The translations under genes were made by a program, and so were the position numbers. A model generated the notes under the pieces. It did no database searches and had not been told where the DNA came from. It saw nothing but the letters and a program-made list of their open reading frames with translations. Positions 9,951-22,043 of a stretch of 32,000 bases of DNA are shown one piece after another. This DNA is from Xylanibacter ruminicola 23 (GTDB lineage Bacteria; Bacteroidota; Bacteroidia; Bacteroidales; Bacteroidaceae): the NCBI RefSeq assembly GCF_000025925.1, contig NC_014033.1, positions 2,160,001 through 2,192,000 of the forward strand. The letters are read 5' to 3'. Numbering within the stretch: position 1 is the first letter of the stretch; each line of letters starts with the position of its first letter.

Positions 9951-9958
9951 CAAAGGTA
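9951..9958 (-). promoter_or_regulatory. -7 promoter box (TACCTTTG) for the LacI gene, and probably for the downstream sensor and GH31 genes
   Basis: The reverse complement of caaaggta matches TAnnTTTG, 26 nt upstream of the LacI ATG. A minus-strand TTTG at 9978-9981 lies 19 nt further upstream, consistent with a -33 element. Confidence 0.65.
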
Positions 9959-9975
9959 CACATTTTTTTGAAAAT

Positions 9976-10049: not shown

Positions 10050-10142
10050 AAAATCAGAAATGAGTAATGAATAGTTGATAATAAGTTAGTTAGAAAATGG
10101 AAAAGCAAGACTGTCGGGATGACACTCTTGCTTTTTATTTTT
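10050..10142 (+). ncRNA. Candidate small non-coding RNA of about 90 nt (ends approximate)
   Basis: It is bracketed by the consensus -7 box at 10035-10042 and a strong intrinsic terminator at 10103-10142. The only ORFs are a 4-codon MSNE peptide and a 46-codon frame that reads through the terminator. Confidence 0.4.
10103..10142 (+). terminator. Intrinsic terminator (13-bp stem with one C-C mismatch, GGGAT loop, TTTTTATTTTT tail)
   Basis: AAGCAAGACTGTC (10103-10115) pairs with GACACTCTTGCTT (10121-10133), followed by a T-rich tail. The reverse orientation has only a weak T-run (TTCCATTTTC), so it may also serve the convergent DUF5686-like gene less efficiently. Confidence 0.7.
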
Positions 10143-10162: not shown

Positions 10163-12811
10163 TTAGAACGTGGCTCGCACCATGAAACGCACGCCATGCT
10201 TGTGGGCGGTGGGCAGCTCGTTGTAGTTTAATCGGCGTACATACTCTACATGAATAATCTTGAAGATATTGTGCAAACCTAAGCTGAGCTCCATATAGGG
10301 GCGCTTGGGATCGATGACATAGCTACCCTCGGGGAAATACATGAGGATAGGATTGCCGATGTTGTGATCCTTGTAGGGATTGTTCTTATCACTGAGTTCG
10401 CCCCACAGTACACGGAAGCCAATCCACTCACGCCACTTGAGCTTACGCAACAGGGGGATGCGGTTGAGAATCTTACCGTTCATATCCCAGTTGACCTGTC
10501 CCGACAGGAATCGGTCGGTTGGGAACTCCATGTTGTTGATGGCCTCGAAGGTGTAGTCCTGCACGATATACGAGAGGTTGGTCTCAGGCATAATGAGCAA
10601 GGGGAAAGGCACCTTCTCCCACTGGATACCACCTTTGATATTGAAGTCCATCTTTCCCCACGACTTGAGCCAGAAGCGCTTATAGATAGAGCCCTCGGTA
10701 TAGTTGTAGCTATACTGACCGCCCAGCACATCCTTCAAGCCCAGGGTATGACTGACGGTAAACACAGGGGCATCGAGGTTGATAGGCAGGCGGCGCTGCT
10801 TGGTGTTGATAAAGGTCTCGCCAGGAGCAAAACGCAACTCTGCACGGAGCTCCGTGGTGCGGATCTTCTGACTGGGTGTATAAGCAGAGGCATCAGCACC
10901 TGTGGGAATGGGATTGCTCCAGTTGGTCCAGGTGGAACGATCACTGCTGTACGACATGGGGATGAAGTACAGACCACCAGCAGCCTCGTTCTCCTCGAGT
11001 TTCATGGAGAGTGTGGTACGGAAGCCCCAGTCCTCCTCGCGTTCGAAGGTGACCGACTGGCGGTTGTAGAACATCATCTTATCTACCTTGCTCCACTTAA
11101 AGGCGGTAAACACATTATCCTTATCGGTGTGCATGAACTTATCGGATGGCGACATCACATCGTAGGTAGATGAGAAGGTGAGCGTGCGCTGCGGGAACTC
11201 GCGGGGCAGGTACTCCTTCTTATTGAACGACCAGATGACATCGCCCTTGTAATACCACTTCTTAGAGTTCCAACCACGGGCCACGTAGCCACGGAAGAAC
11301 AGGTTGGAATCGAGGTTAGCGGTGCTCTGGGCAGAGATACGCGTACGAATACCATCGATGATATTCTTGGTAATCATGGTGTTGATAGGACCGATATCCA
11401 CCTTGCTGGGGTGCTTCTTGGTACCTGTCTCCACAAAGTTCTCGACCAGAGCCTTCAAACCGAACAGTACCCACTTAAAGCCCTTGACATTCTGCATGCC
11501 ATTGACAAACTGATCCATCTGACTCTCAGCCTTGGTCAACTCTACCTGGCGATACTGGTTCCAGAACTCATCGCTACGCATCATGGCGTTCACATCCTTC
11601 ACCTCTTTCTTCGTACCCTTAAACAGCTGTTTGGGCAGTTCGTCGAAGGCGTAATCGTTGATACGGGTGTTACGGATGACAGCAAACTTCTGCAGAAAGT
11701 TGGCCAGCTTGAGTTCGGTAAACATATCATCCACGCTCAGCACCCAGTCGCCATCGGGCAACTGCGTGAACTCCTGCACCACCTGCATGTTCTCCACGAA
11801 GTTTACATCGCTCTTCTTAGGGATGGTCATCTCGCAGCGCTTCACCTGCCAACTGCTGTCGGCCAGGATATACAGGTCGCCACGGAAGCCAAAGTCCTGC
11901 TGGTTGTTGGGCAGGAAGTGCAGATGGTAGCACAGGTCCTTGTCAACCATGAGCGTGTCCTCGATATAATAGCGGTAGAAGCCAATGGCATCCTTGCCGA
12001 TAGGCGAGGTGAAGGGGTACTGCAACATACGTATCTGATCGTCGTAGATGTTCACATCGGTGAACACATCCTTCATGATGGTGTTCAGGATATCACCCGT
12101 CTGGAACAGGTCGTTGATACCCTGGGTGTTGATACCCTTGATGATGATCTTCTCGTCGTGTGGCTTCTTGCGATAGATCTTCTGCGAAACCGTCTCATCC
12201 ACGCTGATGGGCAGGATGAGTTTGTTGTTATATGGGCATGCCTCAATCTGGTCGATAAGCCACTGTTTCTTCTTATACTTGGGCGAATCGAGCACCTCGG
12301 GCTTGAAATCATTGAGTGCCAGTGTAATCTTCTGGTACTTGTTGTACTGATAATAATCGCGGTTGTCGAGATCGGTCTGCTTCTTGGCAGCTATCACCTT
12401 ACGCATCATCTCAACAGCCGGGTTGTTCTTACGACTGTAGCGACCACGCTTGGTTTTGATGGTGACCTCTTTCAACATCTTATTATCGGTCTTGAGCGCA
12501 ATCTTGATGACGTTCTTGATACCCGAGTTAATCTGTACCGTGTGGGATACGTAGCCTACCGACGTAAAGGTGAGTTGCCAGCCATTATGACGGACAATCG
12601 AAAAGTTGCCATCGATATCAGAAGCCACTCCTACCCCATGACCCAGGTACTGGGCACTGGCAAAGGGGATGGGCTCGCCGGTCTTGGCATCCACAATCTG
12701 TCCGCTGATGGTGTGCTGCGCATATGCAGTGAATAGTGAACAGTGCATAGTGAATAGTATCACTATCACCCTCAGTATCCACTGTGTTTTCCAATCAATA
12801 TTTCTCTTCAT
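10163..12811 (-). CDS. Outer-membrane protein with carboxypeptidase-like regulatory (CarboxypepD_reg) N-domain and DUF5686-like body
   Basis: Signal peptide MKRNIDWKTQWILRVIVILFTMHCSLFTAYA. CarboxypepD_reg motif: ISGQIVDAKTGEPIPFASAQ...SDIDGNFSI. Long beta-rich body ending in an aromatic residue (VRFMVRATF), typical of OM barrels. The start codon overlaps the HAD gene by 17 nt. The family name is from memory. Confidence 0.8.
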   Translation of the reverse strand: MKRNIDWKTQWILRVIVILFTMHCSLFTAYAQHTISGQIVDAKTGEPIPFASAQYLGHGVGVASDIDGNFSIVRHNGWQLTFTSVGYVSHTVQINSGIKNVIKIALKTDNKMLKEVTIKTKRGRYSRKNNPAVEMMRKVIAAKKQTDLDNRDYYQYNKYQKITLALNDFKPEVLDSPKYKKKQWLIDQIEACPYNNKLILPISVDETVSQKIYRKKPHDEKIIIKGINTQGINDLFQTGDILNTIMKDVFTDVNIYDDQIRMLQYPFTSPIGKDAIGFYRYYIEDTLMVDKDLCYHLHFLPNNQQDFGFRGDLYILADSSWQVKRCEMTIPKKSDVNFVENMQVVQEFTQLPDGDWVLSVDDMFTELKLANFLQKFAVIRNTRINDYAFDELPKQLFKGTKKEVKDVNAMMRSDEFWNQYRQVELTKAESQMDQFVNGMQNVKGFKWVLFGLKALVENFVETGTKKHPSKVDIGPINTMITKNIIDGIRTRISAQSTANLDSNLFFRGYVARGWNSKKWYYKGDVIWSFNKKEYLPREFPQRTLTFSSTYDVMSPSDKFMHTDKDNVFTAFKWSKVDKMMFYNRQSVTFEREEDWGFRTTLSMKLEENEAAGGLYFIPMSYSSDRSTWTNWSNPIPTGADASAYTPSQKIRTTELRAELRFAPGETFINTKQRRLPINLDAPVFTVSHTLGLKDVLGGQYSYNYTEGSIYKRFWLKSWGKMDFNIKGGIQWEKVPFPLLIMPETNLSYIVQDYTFEAINNMEFPTDRFLSGQVNWDMNGKILNRIPLLRKLKWREWIGFRVLWGELSDKNNPYKDHNIGNPILMYFPEGSYVIDPKRPYMELSLGLHNIFKIIHVEYVRRLNYNELPTAHKHGVRFMVRATF
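12728..12758. repeat. Tandem heptamers AGTGAAT AGTGAAC AGTGCAT AGTGAAT inside the signal-peptide coding region of the DUF5686-like gene
   Basis: Read directly. It encodes LFTMHCSLFT on the minus strand and differs at about 2 of 28 positions from the intergenic array at 23364-23394. Confidence 0.8.
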
Positions 12812-13502
12812 TATTTTCTAAAATCTGTGTTAAGTCTGTTATTACTTTCCCGGCGGGGGACTCATCAACGGGATCGTTAGTCCAACCTTCGCCTTTGAAC
12901 CATACAGTGTGACATCCCGCCTTACCGGCTGGGATGATGTCTTTATCCATACTATCGCCAACTACCACCACTTCATCAGGCTGCATGCCCAGGGCCTCAA
13001 CGCCCAAAGTAAAAATCTGTGGGTCGGGCTTGCGAACGCCTACCACGGCGCTCTCGATGATGGTATCGAAAATGCCATCCAACTTAAACTCCTTGAGCAC
13101 GGTGGCGATGTTACCATAGAAATTGCTGACCAGCACCATGGGGTACTGCTGTTTGAGTTGCAGCAACACCTCGCGACTTTTGGCAGTCTCTTTCACAGTT
13201 GCCTCGTACAAGCTGTCTGTGAGAGGTTTTAGATAAGAAGAGACAGAAGAAACATAGTTCTGTTCCTTTAAGAACTCCAGCTGGATGCGGATTTTGGTTT
13301 CTATCGTTTTGTAGAACGTAAAATCGGGCTGGATGATAGGATTCTTACCCAATGTGCGCTCGGCATGCACATAGGCATCGCGAAAAGCCTCCTCGCTCAC
13401 AGGCATCTGCTGGCGCTCGTAAGCATGCCAAATTACCTTTCCCCAGTGCTGTCCACCGGTATCCAAGGTCCCACCGTAATCAAATATATAACCCTTGAGC
13501 AT
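12795..13502 (-). CDS. HAD superfamily hydrolase, subfamily IA
   Basis: Motif I FDYGGTLDT (nucleophile Asp present, Asp+2 replaced by Gly). Motif II VLVSNF. Motif III Lys in GVRKPDPQIF. Motif IV VVVGDSMDKDI. Confidence 0.85.
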   Translation of the reverse strand: MLKGYIFDYGGTLDTGGQHWGKVIWHAYERQQMPVSEEAFRDAYVHAERTLGKNPIIQPDFTFYKTIETKIRIQLEFLKEQNYVSSVSSYLKPLTDSLYEATVKETAKSREVLLQLKQQYPMVLVSNFYGNIATVLKEFKLDGIFDTIIESAVVGVRKPDPQIFTLGVEALGMQPDEVVVVGDSMDKDIIPAGKAGCHTVWFKGEGWTNDPVDESPAGKVITDLTQILENNEEKY

Positions 13503-13508
13503 TTAAAA

Positions 13509-13548
13509 ATGTAAAAAATATAAAATGTAAAAATGTAAAAATTATAAT
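13509..13548. repeat. Five tandem octamers (ATGTAAAA AATATAAA ATGTAAAA ATGTAAAA ATTATAAT) in the spacer between the phosphotransferase and HAD genes
   Basis: Read directly. The last unit contains the TAA stop (13542-13544) of the CDP-alcohol phosphotransferase gene. Confidence 0.85.
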
Positions 13549-14441
13549 TTAGCACAGAGGGCCTCGTGCTTGTGGTGCATGTACATATACATGGCCTGGA
13601 AGACGGTAATCTCTACCAGGGGATATACCCAAGGGCAATTGAGCAGACAGGTGACATAGATGGTGATGGCACGTGCATTGAACGTGAGCAGGTTGGTGTA
13701 CTTCATCAAAGGACGACTACCTGCTAACAGGCGCTCACGAATAGCCTCAGAAGGCTGCTGCTTCCAAGCGGCAAAGAACTTCTGGAAGTTAGGTGTGCGC
13801 TGCTCCTGACTCTTACAGTAGTTGGCATAATTATAAAAGAACACGCGCGAGAGCACATCGCTCTTAGGCAACGACTCGTAGTGCGCACGCTGCTGCTTAT
13901 AGTTATCCAACTCGCTACCATCCTTACCCAACAGGAAGAAGAGGTGGATCTGACGGTAGTAGTCGGCCAGAGAGCTCTGCTTGGCATGCAGACCGATACC
14001 AGCAGCGGCACACAGCAGGAAGCCCCAGAAGCGCCACTCGATATCGGTGCCAGGAATGGTCTGATACCACAAGCGGGCCACAATACCCAAATAGATAGAG
14101 GTGAACCACAAATCGCCCGAGAAACCATCGAGCATACGACCAATCAGGGTTTTCTTACCAGTGATACGTGCCATCTGACCGTCGGTAGAGTCGCAGAAGT
14201 TAGCGAACATCAGCAACAGTACACCATAGATGTTATGCAGCAGGTCGGTGTAATGAAACATCCAACCAGCGCCCACGCCTAAGAATATCGATACAATGGT
14301 AATGACATTGGGGTGGATATCCAGTTTGTTCCACAACAATGCAAATACCAGTCCTATAGGACGTGTGAAATGCACGTCCAACCACTCTTCAGTATCCTCC
14401 GATTTAAATGATAATTTCAGTAATTCCTTAAATGTTGCCAT
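13542..14441 (-). CDS. CDP-alcohol phosphatidyltransferase family membrane protein
   Basis: Signature CDSTDGQMAR-ITGKKTLI-G-RML-D (D-x2-D-G-x2-A-R-x8-G-x3-D). The final Asp comes after 4 rather than 3 residues (DGFSGD). Multiple TM segments. Confidence 0.88.
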   Translation of the reverse strand: MATFKELLKLSFKSEDTEEWLDVHFTRPIGLVFALLWNKLDIHPNVITIVSIFLGVGAGWMFHYTDLLHNIYGVLLLMFANFCDSTDGQMARITGKKTLIGRMLDGFSGDLWFTSIYLGIVARLWYQTIPGTDIEWRFWGFLLCAAAGIGLHAKQSSLADYYRQIHLFFLLGKDGSELDNYKQQRAHYESLPKSDVLSRVFFYNYANYCKSQEQRTPNFQKFFAAWKQQPSEAIRERLLAGSRPLMKYTNLLTFNARAITIYVTCLLNCPWVYPLVEITVFQAMYMYMHHKHEALCAKL

Positions 14442-14446
14442 TATAT

Positions 14447-14478
14447 TATTTGACTATTTTACTATTATACTATTTTAC
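14447..14478. repeat. Four tandem octamers TATTnnAC (TATTTGAC TATTTTAC TATTATAC TATTTTAC), followed by AATTGTCAATTA
   Basis: Read directly. It spans the spacer and the last codons plus stop of the ATP-grasp gene (IDNCKIV*). Confidence 0.85.
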
Positions 14479-15250
14479 AATTGTCAATTAGTGCGGCAAT
14501 CGCACTTGCCGCATCTTGTCGGCAGCGCGAAAAGCTGGGCCAGTCGTTGAAATCAATGACACAGTAGCTGCCATCCTCGCGGATGATGCAGTCGCCACCA
14601 TATACGCTGATGCCTACAGCCTGTGCCAGCTTCTCGGCATCGGCCTGCAGCGCCTCTACCACAAAGGGATAATGACGGGCGGTACCATTACGCAGTTCGT
14701 CGTTGAACTTGGTGTCGCCATCATCTGTGGGATAGTAATAGCGGAAGAAGCCCGTACCAGCCACACCATAGAACTTAACCAGATCGCCAGGCACGTGGGC
14801 ACTGACGGTATAGGCCGTGATGCCACGCTGCTGGAAGGCAGCTATCTTCTCGTTCAGCTCGGTCTGATTAGCCGCAAACTGCACATCGCTCTTATCCTGT
14901 GCAGCCGCATCGCCACGCTTCAGCCAGTAGCCATGAGCCCCCTGGCGTGGTGGCATAGGCGTGCCAATCTGTTGCATGAGCGCCTCTAACTGGCAGCGCG
15001 CGCAGTTTGCAATGCCTGTAGAGGAATTGATGGCAGGGAAATCGCGCAGTTTGTCGAGTGTCAGTGGCAGGCGTCCCATCGTAAAAATACGGTGGTAACC
15101 GGCAGGATTAAACGGCTGCTCCTCGCTCACCATCTCTACCTCGTAACCAGCCGCACAAAGCTTAGCGCCTACTGCCTCGAGTATCGCCTTGTCTTTCTCA
15201 ACCGAATTAGGTGAGAACACCTCCGCCTGCTGTACCAATAGTATCTTCAA
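14465..15250 (-). CDS. ATP-grasp fold protein (ITPK/RimK-like), substrate unknown; apparent TTG start
   Basis: N-terminal KILLV strand typical of a pre-ATP-grasp domain. C-terminal metal-binding-like motif GGDCIIREDGSYCVIDFNDWPSF (D-x-N), which resembles the IDxNxFPG motif of inositol-trisphosphate 5/6-kinase-type ATP-grasp enzymes. There is no ATG between the upstream stop and residue 40, and the ORF track start is TTG at 15248-15250. Confidence 0.6.
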   Translation of the reverse strand: MKILLVQQAEVFSPNSVEKDKAILEAVGAKLCAAGYEVEMVSEEQPFNPAGYHRIFTMGRLPLTLDKLRDFPAINSSTGIANCARCQLEALMQQIGTPMPPRQGAHGYWLKRGDAAAQDKSDVQFAANQTELNEKIAAFQQRGITAYTVSAHVPGDLVKFYGVAGTGFFRYYYPTDDGDTKFNDELRNGTARHYPFVVEALQADAEKLAQAVGISVYGGDCIIREDGSYCVIDFNDWPSFSRCRQDAASAIAALIDNCKIV

Positions 15251-15255
15251 TTCTA

Positions 15256-15288
15256 AATGTTTAATCTTTAATGTTTAATGTTTAATGT
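15256..15288. repeat. Tandem heptamers AATGTTT AATCTTT AATGTTT AATGTTT AATGTCC between the nucleotidyltransferase and ATP-grasp genes
   Basis: Read directly. It provides the last three codons (IKH) and the TAA stop of the nucleotidyltransferase gene. Confidence 0.9.
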
Positions 15289-15991
15289 CCAAAAAGGTTT
15301 CTGCCTTTTCGATGTCGCTCGCATGGTCGATATCCAGCACCTTTGAGAAGGGGTAAGCCTTGAGCAGCAAGCCATCGGCCACCAGGGCACGCTGGAAGTT
15401 GCGCATACGACTCTCGCCACGCTCGATACAACGCTGCAATACAGGGATGGCCTTAGGTGTTAAGCCATAGATGCCACCACTGATATACTTAGGCAGCTCA
15501 CAGGTATCGAAGAAGCCTGTTATCTGCAGGGCATCGTTGGTACCCACATACAGAGGTTTCTCGTCGTCGATATAATCGGTAACGCCCATCAAGCCATCCA
15601 CCTCGCCTGTCTGTGCCAGCAACTCAAAAGTCTTGGCATAGGTAGCAAACTCTTTTTCACGGAAGATGGTATCTACGGTGGTGAGCACAAAGGGCTCGTC
15701 GGTGAGCCACTGACTCAGTTCCCAGGCACTGTGCATAGAGCTGGGGGTACTCTTCACGATAAACTTCAGGGGCACTTGCTTTGCCTCTGCTATCTCCTTC
15801 AGATGCGCAGCCACAGCCGTCATCTGTTCATTACAAATCACACATATTTCGCTGGCGCCATTGGCCATAAACACACGTATCAAACGGTCGATCAGATGTT
15901 CGCCACCCACTTCTACCAGGGGCTTTGGCGCCTGTACGCCTTCTTGTGCCAATCGCGATCCCTCGCCAGCAGCTATAATTGCATATTTCAT
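15275..15991 (-). CDS. Sugar/alcohol-phosphate nucleotidyltransferase (NTP_transferase fold; LicC/IPCT-like cytidylyltransferase candidate)
   Basis: N-terminal signature MKYAIIAAGEGSRLAQEGVQAPKPLVEVGG (G-x-G-x-R ... K-P-L). Its 238-aa length is typical of single-domain cytidylyl/uridylyltransferases. Confidence 0.85.
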   Translation of the reverse strand: MKYAIIAAGEGSRLAQEGVQAPKPLVEVGGEHLIDRLIRVFMANGASEICVICNEQMTAVAAHLKEIAEAKQVPLKFIVKSTPSSMHSAWELSQWLTDEPFVLTTVDTIFREKEFATYAKTFELLAQTGEVDGLMGVTDYIDDEKPLYVGTNDALQITGFFDTCELPKYISGGIYGLTPKAIPVLQRCIERGESRMRNFQRALVADGLLLKAYPFSKVLDIDHASDIEKAETFLDIKH

Positions 15992-16024
15992 CCTGAATCG
16001 TCAAAAATTACTAGTTTTCGGCGG

Positions 16025-16032
16025 CAAAGGTA
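16025..16032 (-). promoter_or_regulatory. -7 promoter box (TACCTTTG) for the nucleotidyltransferase-led operon
   Basis: The reverse complement of caaaggta lies 33 nt upstream of the ATG at 15991. The upstream gene ends with its own terminator at 16097-16125. Confidence 0.65.
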
Positions 16033-16096
16033 CGCATTTTTACCGAATTACGAAAACTTTGGCTATATATTTAGGTTTTATTTACTATAAAACCAT

Positions 16097-16125
16097 AAAA
16101 AAAGGTGGGGTTTTAACGCCCCACC
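16097..16125 (-). terminator. Intrinsic terminator of the DUF2807-like gene
   Basis: On the minus strand, GGTGGGG (rc of 16119-16125) pairs with CCCCACC (rc of 16104-16110) and is followed by T7 (A-run 16097-16103 on the plus strand). The hairpin includes the stop codon. Confidence 0.8.
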
Positions 16126-16889
16126 TTGAGATTATCGGTATCGATGTCGCCTGAGCCACTTTTATGTTTGTTCATGGATTGAACAGTGCCTCGGAGGTCG
16201 ATATCACCCGAGCCCATGAGCTGGGCATCGACTGAGCCACAGCCTTTTGCAAACTCTACATTCACATCACCAGAGCCACGCAGGGTGATACGGGTAGAGG
16301 CGGCATTCTGCTGGCGCAGGTTGATATCACCCGAGCCAATCAATGTCACATCAGTCTCGCGGGTATCGAGGTTGCGGATAGAGGCATCGCCTGAGCCTAC
16401 TACCTCGAGATTGCAGCGATCGCACAGCAAAGACGAGAACTGGATGTCGCCAGAGCCCTTTAAGTTGATGGTGATATTATCGGTATCCACGGTTCTCTCG
16501 CTGATAAAATCACCTGAGCCAGCCAAGGAAACAGATACGAGATCGGGTGAAGTAACGTACACAGCCAGCGTGTAATCGCCACCGAAATTGATGTTGAACA
16601 TGCCTATCTTACCACGATTGCGGATGGTGAGTTTGCCATCAGACACTTCAGTGATGATGTTATCAACAATATCCTTAGGACCTTTGACCTTGACCGAGAA
16701 CGAGTCGGCCTGCTGGTAGTAAACAGTGGGTGAGCCATACACCTCGATTCCCTCGAAACCACGTAATGAACGACTCTCGGTAACCTTTGGACCGAAATCA
16801 CCAAACTTAAACGACATATTTTCGCGACTGCAGCTGCAAGAAGTCAGCAGAAACGCAATGAAAACGAAAAATAAATACTTTATTTTCAT
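16113..16889 (-). CDS. Lipoprotein with DUF2807 / head-GIN-like beta-helical repeats
   Basis: Lipobox FLLTSCSC. Seven GSGD-initiated repeats of about 20 aa: GSGDFISE, GSGDIQFS, GSGDASIR, GSGDINLR, GSGDVNVE, GSGDIDLR, GSGDIDTD. Confidence 0.8.
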   Translation of the reverse strand: MKIKYLFFVFIAFLLTSCSCSRENMSFKFGDFGPKVTESRSLRGFEGIEVYGSPTVYYQQADSFSVKVKGPKDIVDNIITEVSDGKLTIRNRGKIGMFNINFGGDYTLAVYVTSPDLVSVSLAGSGDFISERTVDTDNITINLKGSGDIQFSSLLCDRCNLEVVGSGDASIRNLDTRETDVTLIGSGDINLRQQNAASTRITLRGSGDVNVEFAKGCGSVDAQLMGSGDIDLRGTVQSMNKHKSGSGDIDTDNLKVGR

Positions 16890-16890
16890 T

Positions 16891-16926
16891 AAACATTAAA
16901 GATTTAACATGAAACATTAAATTAAC
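16891..16926. repeat. Degenerate AATGTTT-family heptamer array directly upstream of the DUF2807-like start codon
   Basis: The minus strand reads GTTAATTT AATGTTT CATGTTA AATCTTT AATGTTT, then A and ATG. Confidence 0.75.
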
Positions 16927-16986
16927 TTTCTCTGACTGTTAGACGGAGTAAACAGCAGAAAAGTTGCAAGGGGGCGAAACTTTTTT

Positions 16987-18237
16987 TTAGCTTAATGGCA
17001 GCTCGACCCAGAAACGCGAGCCATTATCAAGCACAGAATCGACACCAATGCTACCACCTAAGCTCTCGACATGACTCTTGGCTACCGACAGGCCTAAGCC
17101 AGTGCCAGGCACATACTCATCGACCTTGAAGAAACGTTCGAAGATGCGCTCCTGATGCTCCTCGGCAATACCCTTACCTGTATCGAGCACCCACAGCAGG
17201 AGCTTGTCGCCTTGCTGCAAGTCGAAGCCCAAGGTGATAGAACCCTGTGCGGTGAACTTGACGGCATTCTGCATGAGGTTGTTGACAATCTCCTTGAACT
17301 TGGTGATATCGGTGTTCATCAGAATCTCGGGATAAGGGAACTGGGTGGCCAGAACCACGGTGCTGCCATCTACCATGGTGCGGTAGTAATCGGCAATCTC
17401 CTGCAGCACAGGCACGATATTGGTCTGCGACTTGACCAGACTCTTGGCCTCGGCCTCGACCTTCGACATGCTGACCAGTCCATCGATAATATTAAGCAGC
17501 TTATAGTTATTTTTCTGGATTTCGGAGATGAGTTGGTTACGATCCTCCTCGCTCTCAACTACCGGCAGCAAGTCGGCAAAACCTACAATGGCATTGAGCG
17601 GCGTACGGATTTCGTGACCCATGTTTGCCAGGAAAGCGGTCTTCAAGCGGTCGCTCTCCTCGGCCTTGTTACGGGCAGCAATCAGGTCGGCCTCCATCTG
17701 CTTCTGCGCATCGATACGCATAGAGGTTCCTACGATACGGGTAGGATTGCCATCCACATCGCGGGCAGCAATGGTACCATAACTCTCCTCCCAATAGTAC
17801 AGGGCACCCTTACCCAGTTTTACACGATACACCTCGTGATAAGAAGGCGAGGCACCGGTACAGATTTTATCGATGGCCATCCACACACGCTGGGCATCGG
17901 CCCTATCGATGACATTGGTGAGATCTTCGATAGGGAATTCGGGCGGACCCACCAAGCCACCTTTGTTATCACGGAAATCGGCATCTACATAAAGCATCTT
18001 GGTAGGCACATCGATATGCCACGTACTGAGCTTCATGGCCTTGAGCACAAACTCGGACTCGACATTGTTCTGGCGCACCTTTTCGAGCTCGACCAACTCG
18101 GTCTGGAGCTTACGACCAGCGCGACGCTGAACAAAAATCATGATGAACAGCCACAAGAACAACAACGCACCGCCCAACCAAAGGGCCGGAACGAGGTACG
18201 GACTTTCCGATTGCGTGTATAGTAGCAAATTATACAT
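16987..18237 (-). CDS. Membrane-anchored PAS-domain sensor histidine kinase
   Basis: N-terminal TM ALWLGGALLFLWLFIMIFV, then a PAS-like segment. H-box FLANMGHEIRTPLNAIVGF, N-box LMQNAVKFT, G1 DTGKGI, G2 GTGLGLSV. Confidence 0.9.
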   Translation of the reverse strand: MYNLLLYTQSESPYLVPALWLGGALLFLWLFIMIFVQRRAGRKLQTELVELEKVRQNNVESEFVLKAMKLSTWHIDVPTKMLYVDADFRDNKGGLVGPPEFPIEDLTNVIDRADAQRVWMAIDKICTGASPSYHEVYRVKLGKGALYYWEESYGTIAARDVDGNPTRIVGTSMRIDAQKQMEADLIAARNKAEESDRLKTAFLANMGHEIRTPLNAIVGFADLLPVVESEEDRNQLISEIQKNNYKLLNIIDGLVSMSKVEAEAKSLVKSQTNIVPVLQEIADYYRTMVDGSTVVLATQFPYPEILMNTDITKFKEIVNNLMQNAVKFTAQGSITLGFDLQQGDKLLLWVLDTGKGIAEEHQERIFERFFKVDEYVPGTGLGLSVAKSHVESLGGSIGVDSVLDNGSRFWVELPLS

Positions 18238-18267: not shown

Positions 18268-18372
18268 AGGAAATTATTTGGAAAACGAGCATTTTTTGGC
18301 CGTTTTTTATAAAAAACGAAGATTTTTTGTTAGATTAACAGTAAAAAAGCGCATTTTTGGGCGAACTTTCAT

Positions 18373-18380
18373 TACCTTTG
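18373..18380 (+). promoter_or_regulatory. -7 promoter box (TACCTTTG) for the THUMP methyltransferase operon
   Basis: TACCTTTGCAC lies 20 nt upstream of the ATG at 18401. Confidence 0.65.
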
Positions 18381-18400
18381 CACGCTGTAAACTATTAGAA

Positions 18401-19900
18401 ATGGAGCAAAAGTTTGAATTGATCGCCAAAACGTTTATGGGACTGGAACCTGTACTGGCGAAAGAGCTGACCCAAATGGGGGCTAACGATGTTGAAATCG
18501 GTAGACGAATGGTTTCGTTTACGGGTGATAAGGAAATGATGTATCGTGCCAACTTTCAGTTGCACACGGCTATCAGAATTCTGAAGCCAATACGCCATTT
18601 TAGAGCTAAGAGCGCAGACGATGTGTACGAAGAGATCAAGAAGATTGACTGGACTGAATATCTGGGTACCGACAAGACCTTTACGGTTGACTCGGTAGTC
18701 TTCTCTGAAGAATTCCGTCACTCAAAGTTTGTTTCGTATAAAGTAAAGGATGCGATTGTTGACCAATTCCGCGAGAAGACGGGCAAGCGCCCCAATATAT
18801 CGGTGGCCAACCCTGACATCCGACTGAACATGCACATTGCTGAAGACAAATGTACGCTGAGTCTCGACTCGAGCGGTGAGAGTCTGCATCGTCGTGGCTA
18901 CCGCCAGGAGAGTGTAGAGGCACCACTGAACGAGGTGCTGGCAGCTGGTATGATTCTGCTGAGCGGATGGCAGGCCGATACTGATTTTATCGACCCCATG
19001 TGTGGTAGCGGTACCCTGCTGATTGAGGCTGCCCTGATAGCCAAGAACATGGCACCAGGATTGTTCCGCAAGGAGTTTGCCTTTGAGAAGTGGCCTGACT
19101 TTGATGCCGACCTGTTTGATGAGATTTACAACGACGAGAGTCAGGAGCGTGAGTTTAACCACAAGATTTACGGCTACGACATCGACATGAAGGCTGTGAA
19201 CACCGCCCGCATGAATGTGAAGGCAGCCGGACTGAGCGATATCATCACCGTAGAGCAGCAGGACTTCAAGAACTTTACACAACCTGCCAACAAGAGCATC
19301 ATGATATCGAACCCACCTTATGGTGAGCGTATCTCGACGCCCGACCTGTTGGGTACCTACAAGATGATTGGTGAGCGACTGAAGCACCAGTTCAAGGGCA
19401 ACGACGCCTGGATACTGAGCTACCGCGAGGAGTGCTTCGACCAGATTGGTTTGAAGCCCAGCATCAAGATTCCCCTTTACAACGGCAGTCTGGAGTGCGA
19501 GTTCCGTAAGTACCAGATGTTTGACGGTAAGCTGAAGGACTTCCGCTCGGAAGGTGGCGTGGTGAAGACCGAAGAGGAGAAGCGCCAGATGGCCGAGAAG
19601 CACCGCTTTAAGAAGGAGCGCGAGTTTAAGAAGCGCCTGGAAGAGAAAGAGGAGAACGAGGAGGCCGATATTCTGAACTTTACTTTCCACAAGCACGATC
19701 TGGGTAGAAACCGCGGCGGACATGAGAGCTTTGACCGCAGTGGTAAGGACCGCAAAGAGCGTAAGGAGTTTAGCAAAGGCGACCGCAAGGAGTTTGGTAA
19801 GGGCAAGGACCATAAGGACTTTAAGCGTGGCGGCAAGCGCGACTTTAGCAAAGGCAAGGACTTTGGAAAGAAGAGGAGATTTGACGATGATGAAGATTAA
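18401..19900 (+). CDS. THUMP-domain class I SAM-dependent RNA methyltransferase (RlmL N-half/YpsC-like) with a Lys/Arg/Asp-rich C-terminal tail of about 120 aa
   Basis: ORF 18278..19900 trimmed to the ATG at 18401 (MEQKFELIAKTFMGLEPVLAKEL), downstream of the promoter box. SAM motif DPMCGSGTLLIEAA and catalytic NPPYGER. The tail contains degenerate repeats DRKEFSKG / DRKEFGKGKD / HKDFKRGGK / RDFSKGKDFGKK. Confidence 0.88.
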   Translation: MEQKFELIAKTFMGLEPVLAKELTQMGANDVEIGRRMVSFTGDKEMMYRANFQLHTAIRILKPIRHFRAKSADDVYEEIKKIDWTEYLGTDKTFTVDSVVFSEEFRHSKFVSYKVKDAIVDQFREKTGKRPNISVANPDIRLNMHIAEDKCTLSLDSSGESLHRRGYRQESVEAPLNEVLAAGMILLSGWQADTDFIDPMCGSGTLLIEAALIAKNMAPGLFRKEFAFEKWPDFDADLFDEIYNDESQEREFNHKIYGYDIDMKAVNTARMNVKAAGLSDIITVEQQDFKNFTQPANKSIMISNPPYGERISTPDLLGTYKMIGERLKHQFKGNDAWILSYREECFDQIGLKPSIKIPLYNGSLECEFRKYQMFDGKLKDFRSEGGVVKTEEEKRQMAEKHRFKKEREFKKRLEEKEENEEADILNFTFHKHDLGRNRGGHESFDRSGKDRKERKEFSKGDRKEFGKGKDHKDFKRGGKRDFSKGKDFGKKRRFDDDED

Positions 19901-22043
19901 ACTGATGGTGGCCGCACTGGCCATGATGATGACTGCCACAACCATGAGCGCTCAGGATAAGAAACTGTTTACACTCGAAGACCTGAACTTCGGCGGTAAC
20001 AACTATGCCAACCTGCGTCCACAGAACATGTGGCTGACATGGTGGGGCGAGCAGCTGATACAGCAGGATGTAGAGGCCTGCTACACCATCAACACCAAGA
20101 CAGGTAAGAAAACCCTGCTGTTTACACTCGACGACATCAACAAGTGGGCAGGCAGTGATGATACCAAGTACGTGCGCCACCTGATGAACGCCACATTCCC
20201 CTACCCCAACAAACCTATCGTGAAGTTGGGTAACAGGAAGGCGGTGATACTGCTCGACTTCAAGGCCAAGCAGATTATCTGGCAGGACAGCATAGCCGGA
20301 CAGCAGGCCTACGACTGGAACGCCACCTCGCGTGCCACAGCCTATGTGGAGAACCACCAGCTGTATGTGGTGGATGGTGCCGGTAAGAAGCACCAGCTGA
20401 GCACAGACGGCAGCCGAGAGATTGTGTACGGTCAGAGTGTGCATCGTAATGAATTCGGTATCGACAAGGGTACCTTCTGGAGCCCTGATGGTAGCAAGCT
20501 GGCTTTCTATCGCATGGACCAGAGCATGGTAACCGACTACCCACAGGTAGATATCTTCCCACGTAACGCCAGTTACGAGCCCGACAAGTACCCCATGGCT
20601 GGTATGACCAGTCATAAGGTGACCGTGGGTGTGTTTGACGTGAAGAGTGGTAAGACCGTATATCTGCAGGCTGGTGACCCAACCGACCGTTATTTCACCA
20701 ACATCAGTTGGGCTCCCGATGCCCAAACGGTGTATATGCTGGAGCTGAACCGCAAGCAGAACGACTGCCGATTGGTATCGTACGATGCCAACACAGGCGC
20801 CAAGATAGCCGAGTTGTATCGTGAGACATCGGAGAAATATGTGGAGCCACAGCACCCCATCGAGTTCCTGCCTTGGGATGCCAGCAAATTCGTGATGCAG
20901 AGTCAGAAGGATGGCTACAACCACCTGTACCTGATGGATAAGAGCGGTAAGCAGCTGAAGCAGATTACCAGTGGCAAATGGGTAGTGATGGAGGTGTTAG
21001 GCTTTAACCTGAAGGACAAAGCAGTGATTATCGCCTCGAACGAGTTGAGCCCCCTGCAGCGTAACCTCTGGGCTGTAAACATCAGCACTGGCAAGCGCAC
21101 CCTGCTGGATAACGGTAAGGGCGTGCATCGTGGTGAGCTGTCGGCAACAGGTGCCCTGTTGTTCAACAAATATCAGGAACCCACCGTTCCTAATAATATT
21201 GAAGTAACCAGCACCCACCACCCATCACCCATCACCTTATTGAAAGCCGCTGACCCCTGGGCAGCCTTCGAGCAGCCCATCTATGAGAACGGTAGCATCA
21301 AGGCCGCTGATGGCACTACCGATTTATATTATAGAATGGTGAAGCCACACGACTTTGACCCCAATAAGAAATACCCCACTGTGGTGTATGTGTATGGCGG
21401 ACCTCACGCCCACAACGTAGACGCCTCGTGGCACTGGGCCAGCAGATCGTGGGAGACCTACATGGCACAGAAGGGCTACATCTGCTTTATTATCGACAAC
21501 CGTGGCTCGGAGAATCGCGGACGTGACTTTGAGCAGGCTACCTGGCATCAGTTAGGACAGGTAGAGATGCAGGACCAGATGAAGGGTGTGGAGTTTCTGA
21601 AGCAGCAGTCATACGTGGATACAAACCGACTGGGTGTACACGGCTGGAGCTTTGGTGGATTCATGACCATCAGTCTGATGACCAACTACCCCGACGTGTT
21701 TAAGGTAGGTGTAGCAGGCGGTCCGGTGATTGACTGGAAATGGTATGAGGTGATGTATGGCGAGCGCTATATGGGTACCCCACAGGATAACCCCGAGGGT
21801 TATGCCAAGAGCAGTCTGATCAGCAAGGCCAAGAACCTGAAGGGCAAACTGCAGATTATCACGGGTTATAACGATAACACCGTGGTGCCACAGCACTGCC
21901 TGAGTTTCCTGGATGCCTGCATCAAGGCCGGCACACAGCCCGACTTCTTTGCCTACCCAGGCGAGGAGCATAACATGCGTGGTCATGCCTCAGTGCACCT
22001 GCACGAGCGCATCACCCAATATTTTGAGGATTACTTGAAATAA
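19887..22043 (+). CDS. S9B family serine peptidase (dipeptidyl-peptidase IV / prolyl tripeptidyl peptidase-like)
   Basis: ORF 19722..22043 trimmed to the ATG at 19887 (signal peptide MMKIKLMVAALAMMMTATTMSA). Beta-propeller N-domain and catalytic Ser motif HGWSFGGF, with Asp/His regions ITGYNDNTV and EEHNM. The start overlaps the methyltransferase 3' end by 14 nt. Confidence 0.88.
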   Translation: MMKIKLMVAALAMMMTATTMSAQDKKLFTLEDLNFGGNNYANLRPQNMWLTWWGEQLIQQDVEACYTINTKTGKKTLLFTLDDINKWAGSDDTKYVRHLMNATFPYPNKPIVKLGNRKAVILLDFKAKQIIWQDSIAGQQAYDWNATSRATAYVENHQLYVVDGAGKKHQLSTDGSREIVYGQSVHRNEFGIDKGTFWSPDGSKLAFYRMDQSMVTDYPQVDIFPRNASYEPDKYPMAGMTSHKVTVGVFDVKSGKTVYLQAGDPTDRYFTNISWAPDAQTVYMLELNRKQNDCRLVSYDANTGAKIAELYRETSEKYVEPQHPIEFLPWDASKFVMQSQKDGYNHLYLMDKSGKQLKQITSGKWVVMEVLGFNLKDKAVIIASNELSPLQRNLWAVNISTGKRTLLDNGKGVHRGELSATGALLFNKYQEPTVPNNIEVTSTHHPSPITLLKAADPWAAFEQPIYENGSIKAADGTTDLYYRMVKPHDFDPNKKYPTVVYVYGGPHAHNVDASWHWASRSWETYMAQKGYICFIIDNRGSENRGRDFEQATWHQLGQVEMQDQMKGVEFLKQQSYVDTNRLGVHGWSFGGFMTISLMTNYPDVFKVGVAGGPVIDWKWYEVMYGERYMGTPQDNPEGYAKSSLISKAKNLKGKLQIITGYNDNTVVPQHCLSFLDACIKAGTQPDFFAYPGEEHNMRGHASVHLHERITQYFEDYLK

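Follow-up and report, generated by a model that had tools for sequence, protein, structure and literature searches.

A conserved ATP-grasp component in a putative CDP-inositol head-group cluster of Xylanibacter ruminicola 23

Described routes to inositol lipids

Gut Bacteroidota make inositol sphingolipids, which influence host colonisation as well as antimicrobial-peptide resistance (PMC9246714). Here, we analyse a five-gene cluster of Xylanibacter ruminicola 23 that may build the head group of such lipids. The cluster lies in a 32,000-nucleotide stretch of contig NC_014033.1 (positions 2,160,001 to 2,192,000), referred to as the window, and all coordinates below are those of the window. CDP-inositol-type head-group synthesis has already been proposed for this clade, and the conserved ATP-grasp component of the cluster is newly described here.

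The closest genomic precedent is the putative alternative cluster of Heaver 2022, which combines an NTP transferase, a CDP-alcohol phosphatidyltransferase, and a HAD hydrolase, usually beside a gene for myo-inositol-phosphate synthase (MIPS), with exceptions (PMC9246714). This cluster is present in B. (Phocaeicola) vulgatus and common in Prevotella, and its functions are described as unconfirmed by the authors (PMC9246714). Inositol dihydroceramide is made by B. vulgatus and P. veroralis, two species with the alternative cluster and no BT_1522, BT_1523, or BT_1525 (PMC9246714). A CDP-inositol route was proposed for them, and a carboxypeptidase-regulatory-like protein was noted near both types of inositol-lipid cluster (PMC9246714). 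The first-pass annotation of the window had mentioned a Prevotella cluster of this composition, which corresponds to this published proposal.

Biochemical precedent comes from Rhodothermus marinus. There, MIPS, IPCT, and BEPIS form a route in which a lipid alcohol receives its head group from CDP-inositol, the proven donor (Jorge, Borges & Santos 2015, as relayed in PMC4587543). By analogy, this CDP-inositol route appears to be the closest characterised system to the locus studied here. The first-pass annotation cited LicC and IPCT/DIPPS as precedents and left IPCT/BEPIS out. In Tannerella forsythia, inositol ceramides are made from external inositol only, and no kinase has been identified (PMC4587543). 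In this species, inositol scavenging can fully supply inositol ceramide synthesis.

The X. ruminicola cluster and its proposed pathway

The cluster consists of five closely packed minus-strand genes in the open reading frame (ORF) list, given here in reading order with the abbreviations used for gene orders:

15275 to 15991, minus strand: NTP transferase (NTP), 238 amino acids, predicted CTP:inositol-phosphate cytidylyltransferase (IPCT-like); Pfam PF00483, E = 1.7e-12
14465 to 15250, minus strand: ATP-grasp protein (AG), 261 amino acids, TTG start, predicted inositol/inositol-phosphate kinase; AlphaFold (AF2) model and Foldseek
13542 to 14441, minus strand: CDP-alcohol phosphotransferase (CPT), 299 amino acids, membrane protein, predicted CDP-inositol:lipid-alcohol inositolphosphotransferase; Pfam PF01066, E = 1.8e-10
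12795 to 13502, minus strand: HAD-IA hydrolase (HAD), 235 amino acids, predicted phosphatase; Pfam PF00702 and PF13419
10163 to 12811, minus strand: DUF5686 and CarboxypepD_reg protein, 882 amino acids, signal-like N-terminus; Pfam PF18939, E = 1.7e-52, and PF13715 (CarbopepD_reg_2)

The family labels of the first-pass annotation hold: Pfam agrees for NTP_transferase, CDP-OH_P_transf, and HAD, and a fold search does so for the ATP-grasp protein.

The locus shares several features with the cluster of Heaver 2022. The NTP transferase, phosphotransferase, and HAD genes are contiguous on one strand, the carriers belong to the same taxa, MIPS often lies beside the genes, and a carboxypeptidase-regulatory-like protein is found nearby. 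Fusions of phosphotransferase and HAD hydrolase occur, as in P. veroralis. Differences concern the ATP-grasp gene, which is present here in every cluster and absent from that paper as far as its main and supplementary text goes (PMC9246714). The paper also gives the HAD protein an AUR1-like role in transfer from phosphatidylinositol (PI) to ceramide, whereas a phosphatase is predicted here. Lastly, MIPS is not adjacent in the window; because the authors themselves list exceptions, adjacency is better regarded as frequent than as defining.

Orthologous clusters with the same gene order and 45–70% identity occur in P. corporis (locus L064), P. micans (L072), S. baroniae (L044), S. salivae (L063), H. 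loescheii (L078), and Hallella seregens (L052). These six species are cluster-positive in Table S5 of Heaver 2022, with BV ptrans and HAD E-values of at most 1e-69 (PMC9246714). Since same-order orthologues such as those of P. corporis and P. micans scored positive, the X. ruminicola operon can be placed, by sequence, as a rumen Prevotella member of the alternative inositol-lipid cluster proposed in 2022, with MIPS not adjacent. In P. corporis and P. micans, MIPS directly follows the HAD gene. Because orthologous clusters carry MIPS at this position, the head group is most probably inositol phosphate (myo-inositol phosphate). The first-pass annotation had called the head group unknown and had noted that MIPS is missing; the latter applies to the full 32-kb window, and the former can be narrowed through the MIPS-bearing orthologues.

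On balance, we consider it more probable than not that the cluster encodes a Kennedy-type pathway for a phospho-inositol lipid head group (inositol phosphoceramide and/or phosphatidylinositol), for which we infer the following substrates, order of the HAD step, and acceptor. The ATP-grasp protein would use ATP to phosphorylate myo-inositol or inositol monophosphate, either scavenged or made by the MIPS encoded in the cluster of some species. The NTP transferase would join the product with CTP, yielding CDP-inositol or CDP-inositol-phosphate. The phosphotransferase would then move phospho-inositol to a lipid alcohol, dihydroceramide or diacylglycerol, with release of CMP. Finally, the HAD hydrolase would strip a leftover phosphate, most likely after transfer, in the manner of phosphatidylglycerophosphate (PGP) and phosphatidylinositol-phosphate (PIP) phosphatases: the kinase would make a bisphosphate, the transferred head group would retain one phosphate, and the hydrolase would take it off. 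In an alternative order, the hydrolase would act on MIPS-made D-Ins-3-P, and the kinase would re-phosphorylate the inositol elsewhere (D-3 to D-1). In Prevotellaceae, the DUF5686 envelope protein would be co-expressed with these enzymes. Such a route would bypass the CDP-diacylglycerol/PIP-synthase pathway of Bacteroides thetaiotaomicron.

MIPS yields the D-3-phosphate, and canonical PI is linked at D-1. From this established stereochemistry, a kinase and a phosphatase that, in either order of the HAD step, jointly move the phosphate would explain why the cluster holds two more enzymes than the IPCT/BEPIS route. The core idea of the first-pass annotation, in which a CDP-linked alcohol is made and its phospho-alcohol is transferred to a lipid, is supported and consistent with all findings.

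Conservation of a four-gene core

A genome scan with an alignment of the ATP-grasp protein gave at least 597 species matches, of which the best 80 were examined, all from Prevotellaceae. The closest relative among the matches listed is a rumen metagenome-assembled genome (88% identity). The gene order NTP–AG–CPT–HAD(–MIPS)(–DUF5686) is kept across these 80 Prevotellaceae species loci, and most of them show NTP–AG–CPT–HAD–DUF5686. The same NTP/AG/CPT/HAD core is found in the distant contexts of loci L081 and L084–L086.

Independent of this search, a census was anchored on the phosphotransferase, with a relative from another genomic neighbourhood as the seed. It covered metagenome loci, mostly from the human gut, and 55 of them had at least 2.5 kb on both sides. 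The ATP-grasp and NTP transferase genes are present in 55/55 loci and the HAD gene in 54/55, followed by MIPS (20/55) and DUF5686 (3/55). NTP–ATP-grasp–CPT–HAD constitutes an invariant four-gene core, which is new here. A survey of gene order had been suggested when the window was first annotated; it finds the order conserved in the Prevotellaceae loci and the core recurring in the census.

The MIPS gene (Pfam PF07994, 3e-99) lies directly 3' of HAD in 25/81 loci found through the ATP-grasp protein and in the 20 census loci. In both locus sets, it is the sole metabolic gene that repeatedly joins the core. By our own count from Table S5 of Heaver 2022, a MIPS homologue is missing altogether from 13 of the 40 cluster-positive Prevotella/Hallella species, and a homologue of the MINPP phytase is kept in 12 of these 13. 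Four such species are represented among the loci (L044, L052, L063, and L078), and all keep the ATP-grasp and HAD genes. For these named species, clusters without an adjacent MIPS belong to genomes without any MIPS (4/4).

Gene fusions add a further link. Database proteins include NTP=AG, AG=HAD, and AG=CPT fusions, and CPT=HAD fusions occur in loci L023, L025, and L047. Taken at face value, these sequences tie all four proteins to one pathway. They say little on reaction order because all of them join neighbouring genes. The LicC/LicA-type pairing is echoed by the NTP=AG fusions.

Locus L081 contains a second pair of genes, a CDP-OH_P_transf and an IspD-like NTP_transf_3, at 14590-16222 of that locus and 0.6 kb from the cluster; the pair also occurs in L082 and L083. 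This arrangement suggests two Kennedy-type head-group modules side by side.

The NTP transferase and the phosphotransferase

The NTP transferase retains the conserved motifs G-x-G-S-R-L and K23-P-L, and it matches the IPCT/DIPPS model of NCBIfam below threshold (1.6e-10). Comparison of its profile with the PDB gives 4jd0, which we take to be T. maritima IPCT, as the only full-length top match (4.3e-7). The profile also matches A. fulgidus IPCT (2xme, 3.2e-5), IPCT/DIPPS (4mnd, 2.6e-4), and LicC (1jyk). Glucose-1-phosphate cytidylyltransferase (1tzf, 3.7e-7) and a MurU-like enzyme (4y7t) score as well as or better than the IPCT entries.

The phosphotransferase scores above the gathering threshold of PF01066 (41.8 bits vs a cut-off of 22). 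Its signature, D84xxD87GxxAR92...G101xxxD105, is invariant at D84, D87, G88, A91, R92, G101, and D105. The last signature Asp falls at +5 after D105 (D110) instead of +4, with Asn in 1/24 sequences and Gly or Ser at +4. An ungapped alignment to AF2299 displays this one-residue shift. Residues 84-110 (window 14112-14192, minus strand) read G-x3-D-x4-D instead of G-x3-D-x3-D family-wide. The C-terminal half of the protein, about 150 residues, is without counterpart in the structure matches. The predicted model of the phosphotransferase is poor (pLDDT 66.8), and a Foldseek search with it gave nothing significant.

Against the PDB, the phosphotransferase profile matches AF2299 best (4o6m, 2.9e-9), then PIPS and DIPPS (DIPPS at 0.023), and M. 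tuberculosis 'PgsA1', a PIP synthase, appears at just 0.59. Up to E = 1, the matches include no structure of a phosphatidylserine synthase, a true PG-phosphate synthase, or CPT/EPT. A grouping with PgsA/Pss enzymes, which the first-pass annotation had named as evidence contrary to its reading, is thus not what was found, although this profile comparison does not separate CDP-diacylglycerol donors from CDP-alcohol donors. The nearest NCBIfam models are AIP synthase (4.7e-12) and PIP synthase (1.8e-7). Among the models compared (NF045883, NF052561, and NF040950), the cut-offs are not reached: 31.1 vs 170 bits for PIP, 18.1 vs 350 for the BT_1523 type, and 46.2 vs 180 for AIP. By sequence, the enzyme belongs with the inositol-type CDP-alcohol phosphotransferases, a placement that fits a CDP-linked lipid or CDP-linked inositol equally. 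Constant pairing with a soluble nucleotidyltransferase favours CDP-inositol as the putative donor.

The HAD hydrolase

Motif I of the HAD hydrolase is FDYGGTLD, in which the nucleophile D8 is invariant and D+2 is an invariant Gly across 78 homologues. An invariant Asp follows six residues further on (residues 1-15 correspond to window 13458-13502, minus strand), and 'VSNF', 'RKPD', and 'GDSxxKD' are conserved as well (n = 78). Judged by these residues, motif I departs from the textbook phosphatase motif. E. coli YihX carries this D-x-G variant as well and functions as a phosphatase. The protein has a weak PGP_phosphatase match in Pfam, and its PDB matches (PH1655, dehalogenases, and NANP) give no clue to its substrate.

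We lean towards a HAD step after transfer, since the gene is kept where MIPS is absent. This order also fits the CPT=HAD fusions and mirrors the logic of PGP and PIP synthesis. A HAD step before activation would fit the split layout AG–HAD–MIPS / NTP–CPT of some genomes, along with the AG=HAD fusions. A role solely as the Ins-3-P phosphatase of the de novo branch was considered and rejected, as HAD is retained in genomes without MIPS.

The ATP-grasp protein

The ATP-grasp protein has no above-threshold match in Pfam or NCBIfam. Its AF2 model (pLDDT 91.4) matches ATP-grasp structures alone in Foldseek, among them Ddl, LysX/ArgX, RimK, and ITPK1, with TM-scores of about 0.65. Ddl, LysX, and RimK rank first, and ZmITPK1 is found at TM 0.66. 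The model confirms an ATP-grasp fold, and the label of the first-pass annotation was correct. The family comprises at least 1154 clusters at 50% identity.

Several comparisons point towards inositol phosphate kinases. PF05770, the ITPK ATP-grasp domain, is a recurrent sub-threshold Pfam match in 21/43 members (E up to 5, best E 0.002), and the ligase families RimK and R2K_3 are matched in 1 and 2 of the same 43, respectively. A narrow profile (A1) retrieves ITPK1 and ITPK4 from the PDB, the sole other match being a nucleosome assembly protein at E 0.56. With hhalign, the family aligns with human ITPK1 (a query 100% identical to 2odt_X) at 58%, E 9.9e-5, over 232 columns; RimK scores at least as high (72%), and the controls DdlB and PurD give 10% and 14%. 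Across 104 sequences, D233, N235, and D236 are invariant. The D-x-N metal (Mg2+) motif in the last beta-hairpin aligns with 'IDIN' of ITPK1 and 'VDLN' of ITPK4, and the ligase 7drm has 'LELN'. Substrates of ITPK1, an ATP-grasp kinase of the ITPK type, include Ins(3)P and Ins(1)P (PMC6900528).

Genomic context bears on the same question. If the product is an inositol lipid, cluster carriers without MIPS must phosphorylate scavenged inositol, which favours a kinase role for the ATP-grasp protein. This role is also supported by the fact that a kinase would complete the Kennedy triad. Between a kinase and a ligase, a kinase appears the more likely function. The stronger statement, that this family is a bacterial inositol/inositol-phosphate kinase completing a Kennedy-type triad for inositol sphingolipids or phospholipids, is put forward tentatively and may well prove wrong.

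Alternative explanations

Several observations weigh against the proposed pathway. The ATP-grasp protein scores 13.8 bits with PF05770, below the Pfam threshold of 23. A broader profile (A3) ranks the ligase-type ATP-grasp structure 7drm on top in the PDB, and hhalign scores E. coli RimK at least as high as ITPK1 (72%, E 3.4e-5, 262 columns). In profile comparison, the distance of the protein to ITPK1 is no smaller than that to RimK. The HAD hydrolase is without the usual second Asp of motif I, the general acid/base, and the split layout AG–HAD–MIPS / NTP–CPT conflicts with a HAD-last role. For the phosphotransferase, the direction of transfer is not settled by sequence, since its nearest named relatives, the AIP and PIP synthases, take a CDP-lipid as donor and inositol phosphate as acceptor. 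The fusions could in part be read-through or assembly errors, given that they join neighbours. The window has no MIPS gene, and we found no characterisation of the cluster enzymes later than Heaver 2022 in the literature consulted. Placement of the ATP-grasp protein in the ITPK family was not adopted, as all ITPK scores are sub-threshold, A3 prefers 7drm, and RimK scores at least as high as ITPK1 in hhalign. Because it falls below the Pfam cut-off and is no closer to ITPK1 than to RimK, the protein is therefore best treated as representing a separate, unnamed ATP-grasp family.

The same scores allow for a variant in which the CDP-inositol pathway stands and the ATP-grasp protein is a RimK/GshB-type ligase, joining a carboxylate to an amine or hydroxyl through an acyl-phosphate, for example to decorate the inositol head group or a precursor. 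Besides the RimK and A3 results, GshB aligns at 85% over a local stretch, Foldseek ranks ligases ahead of ITPK1, and existing annotations of homologues read 'glutathione synthase/RimK-type ligase'. However, no carrier protein and no partner supplying a carboxylate or an amine occurs in the conserved neighbourhood of either locus set, the Mg2+ motif reads D-x-N where the aligned ligase has E-x-N, and Pfam ligase families are matched in far fewer members (1–2/43) than the ITPK domain. With a ligase, cluster carriers without MIPS would still have no means to make inositol phosphate. We regard this variant as unlikely. Improbable, in our estimate, is a scheme in which the phosphotransferase acts like a PIP or AIP synthase on CDP-diacylglycerol and inositol phosphate and the HAD hydrolase is the PIP phosphatase, with inositol salvage, a capsule sugar, or some other side function left to the NTP transferase and the ATP-grasp protein. 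The best NCBIfam matches, the matched PIPS structures, the weak PGP_phosphatase match, and the CPT=HAD fusions, which fit a synthase followed by a phosphatase, all agree with it. Yet the family cut-offs are missed by far, the NTP transferase that stands beside the phosphotransferase in every census locus would have no role, and species without BT_1522 would have no route to inositol ceramide.

Slightly less probable still is another alcohol phosphate (a different cyclitol, a polyol, or a sugar) as the head group in X. ruminicola and the other carriers that have no MIPS. The missing MIPS, both in the window and in about one third of cluster-positive species, fits such a head group, as does the equal similarity of the NTP transferase to sugar-1-phosphate transferases. 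On the other side, the proteins are orthologous whether or not a carrier has MIPS, sharing 50–70% identity and the gene order, and MIPS alone among metabolic genes recurrently joins the core. External inositol fully supplies inositol ceramide synthesis in T. forsythia, and nearly all species without MIPS (12/13) keep a MINPP homologue. We give the least credence to a soluble solute of the di-myo-inositol-phosphate (DIP) type, made, as in hyperthermophiles, through MIPS, IPCT, a DIPPS-like transferase, and a phosphatase. The set of genes resembles IPCT/DIPPS with a phosphatase added, which would account for the HAD hydrolase, and DIPPS 4mnd is matched by the NTP transferase and phosphotransferase profiles alike. 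But the DIPPS match of the phosphotransferase is weak (0.023), the ATP-grasp protein is left unexplained, and the habitat is rumen and gut. To our knowledge, DIP is found only in (hyper)thermophiles. Moreover, carriers of the cluster without BT-type genes make inositol ceramide (PMC9246714). A CDP-inositol pathway to a lipid head group is the reading that we retain.

Transcription signals and neighbouring genes

The transcription signals of the unit are as follows:

16102 to 16127, minus strand: terminator of the upstream DUF2807 gene, hairpin and U-run (-16.2 kcal/mol, z -4.7)
16025 to 16032, minus strand: TAcctTTG, a match to the Bacteroidota -7 promoter motif, 33 nt 5' of the first ATG
10101 to 10135, minus strand: intrinsic terminator after the fifth gene, a 14-bp interrupted stem with a U-rich tail (-19.1 kcal/mol, z -7.15, 0/200 shuffles)

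The intergenic gaps are 24, 23, and 39 nt in order, followed by a 17-nt overlap of HAD and DUF5686, in line with the spacing given in the first-pass annotation. That annotation was also right about the terminator of the upstream gene, which probably marks the 5' boundary of the transcription unit. It had read all five genes from one TAnnTTTG promoter at 16025-16032. The motif is present, and because motifs of this type number 24 in the window against 12.9 expected from shuffles (about twofold), the single match is weak, suggestive evidence of a promoter. A sigma-70 promoter scan of the window found 9 promoters against 9.2 expected; such a scan is uninformative for Bacteroidota. The layout fits a single five-gene transcription unit, and it is from this layout that co-transcription would follow. 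The terminator at the end of the operon (about 10135 to 10101) is an addition to the features listed earlier. An internal TAtaTTTG at 13481-13488 on the minus strand, 14 nt into the HAD coding sequence, may have arisen by chance or may serve HAD and DUF5686 as a secondary promoter.

The DUF5686 protein has one hydrophobic segment, at its N-terminus. Its gene follows the cluster in most Prevotellaceae loci and is linked to it also in the rearranged, distant locus L081 (10603-13227). It is part of the unit in Prevotellaceae and rarely elsewhere. The first-pass annotation had counted it, as an outer-membrane protein gene, among the genes of the unit; this holds for Prevotellaceae, where it overlaps HAD, and rarely for the gut loci. 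The protein is possibly an envelope partner of inositol lipids.

Upstream, synteny of a histidine kinase and the DUF2807 gene (window 16113-18237, minus strand) is confined to the closest relatives (L001–L012, L023, and L025). One protein of 691 amino acids (P0266) is called as a histidine-kinase=ATP-grasp fusion and may be an assembly or gene-calling artefact. An RlmL/THUMP-type methyltransferase ORF at 18278-19900 (plus strand) ends in a Lys-, Arg-, Glu-, and Asp-rich tail of about 140 residues and shares about 180 nt with the beginning of the DPP-IV ORF as listed (19722-22043). For the LacI-family ORF, the start is listed at 9963, and TAcctTTG at 9958-9951 (minus strand) falls inside the first listed codons (window 9951-9963); the true start therefore probably lies further downstream.

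Implications and comparison with characterised systems

An obligatory ATP-grasp protein, together with the many carriers that have no inositol-phosphate synthase, turns a vague proposal into a specific hypothesis for the inositol-lipid route of most Prevotella and of Phocaeicola vulgatus. It suggests that cluster carriers can feed diet-derived inositol directly into membrane lipids. Should the hypothesis be correct, the one third or so of carriers without MIPS would build inositol lipids from dietary or phytate-derived inositol. In that case, the ATP-grasp and HAD enzymes could also relocate the MIPS-derived D-3 phosphate to give a D-1-linked head group. As the first inositol kinase of the ATP-grasp type in Bacteria, the family would then fill the enzymology of the main Prevotella inositol-lipid route. 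It is, moreover, a candidate for the inositol kinase reported missing in T. forsythia.

The eukaryotic Kennedy pathway (choline/ethanolamine kinase, cytidylyltransferase, and CPT/EPT) would share the same three-step chemistry if the ATP-grasp protein is a kinase. In contrast, its kinase and cytidylyltransferase folds are unrelated to those encoded here, a phosphatase is added here, and no CPT/EPT match appears up to E = 1. The ITPK family (PF05770; human ITPK1, plant ITPK1/4, Entamoeba, and Asgard archaea) has in common with the ATP-grasp protein the fold, a C-terminal 'G..G.D.I....G...IDxN.xPsF' block, and the D-x-N metal motif. The protein differs in scoring below the PF05770 cut-off and in being no nearer to ITPK1 than to RimK.

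The archaeal and bacterial proteins IPCT–DIPPS (4mnd) and AF2299 (4o6m) provide the structural parallel, since a nucleotidyltransferase and a CDP-alcohol phosphotransferase are paired or fused in each. DIPPS uses inositol phosphate as acceptor, its product is a solute, and its sequence similarity to the present enzyme is low. Relative to both AF2299 and DIPPS, the phosphotransferase described here has an extra C-terminal half of about 150 residues and a shifted last Asp.

Pathway logic is most similar in R. marinus, where, as far as the available description goes, three genes suffice and the acceptor is a dialkylether glycerol. Here, ATP-grasp and HAD are obligatory extras, and the acceptor is presumably ceramide or diacylglycerol. 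The comparison follows the described logic rather than the BEPIS sequence: in both systems, a soluble cytidylyltransferase would form CDP-inositol, and a membrane CDP-alcohol phosphotransferase would pass the head group to a lipid alcohol. As in R. marinus, MIPS resides in the same operon in many relatives of this cluster.

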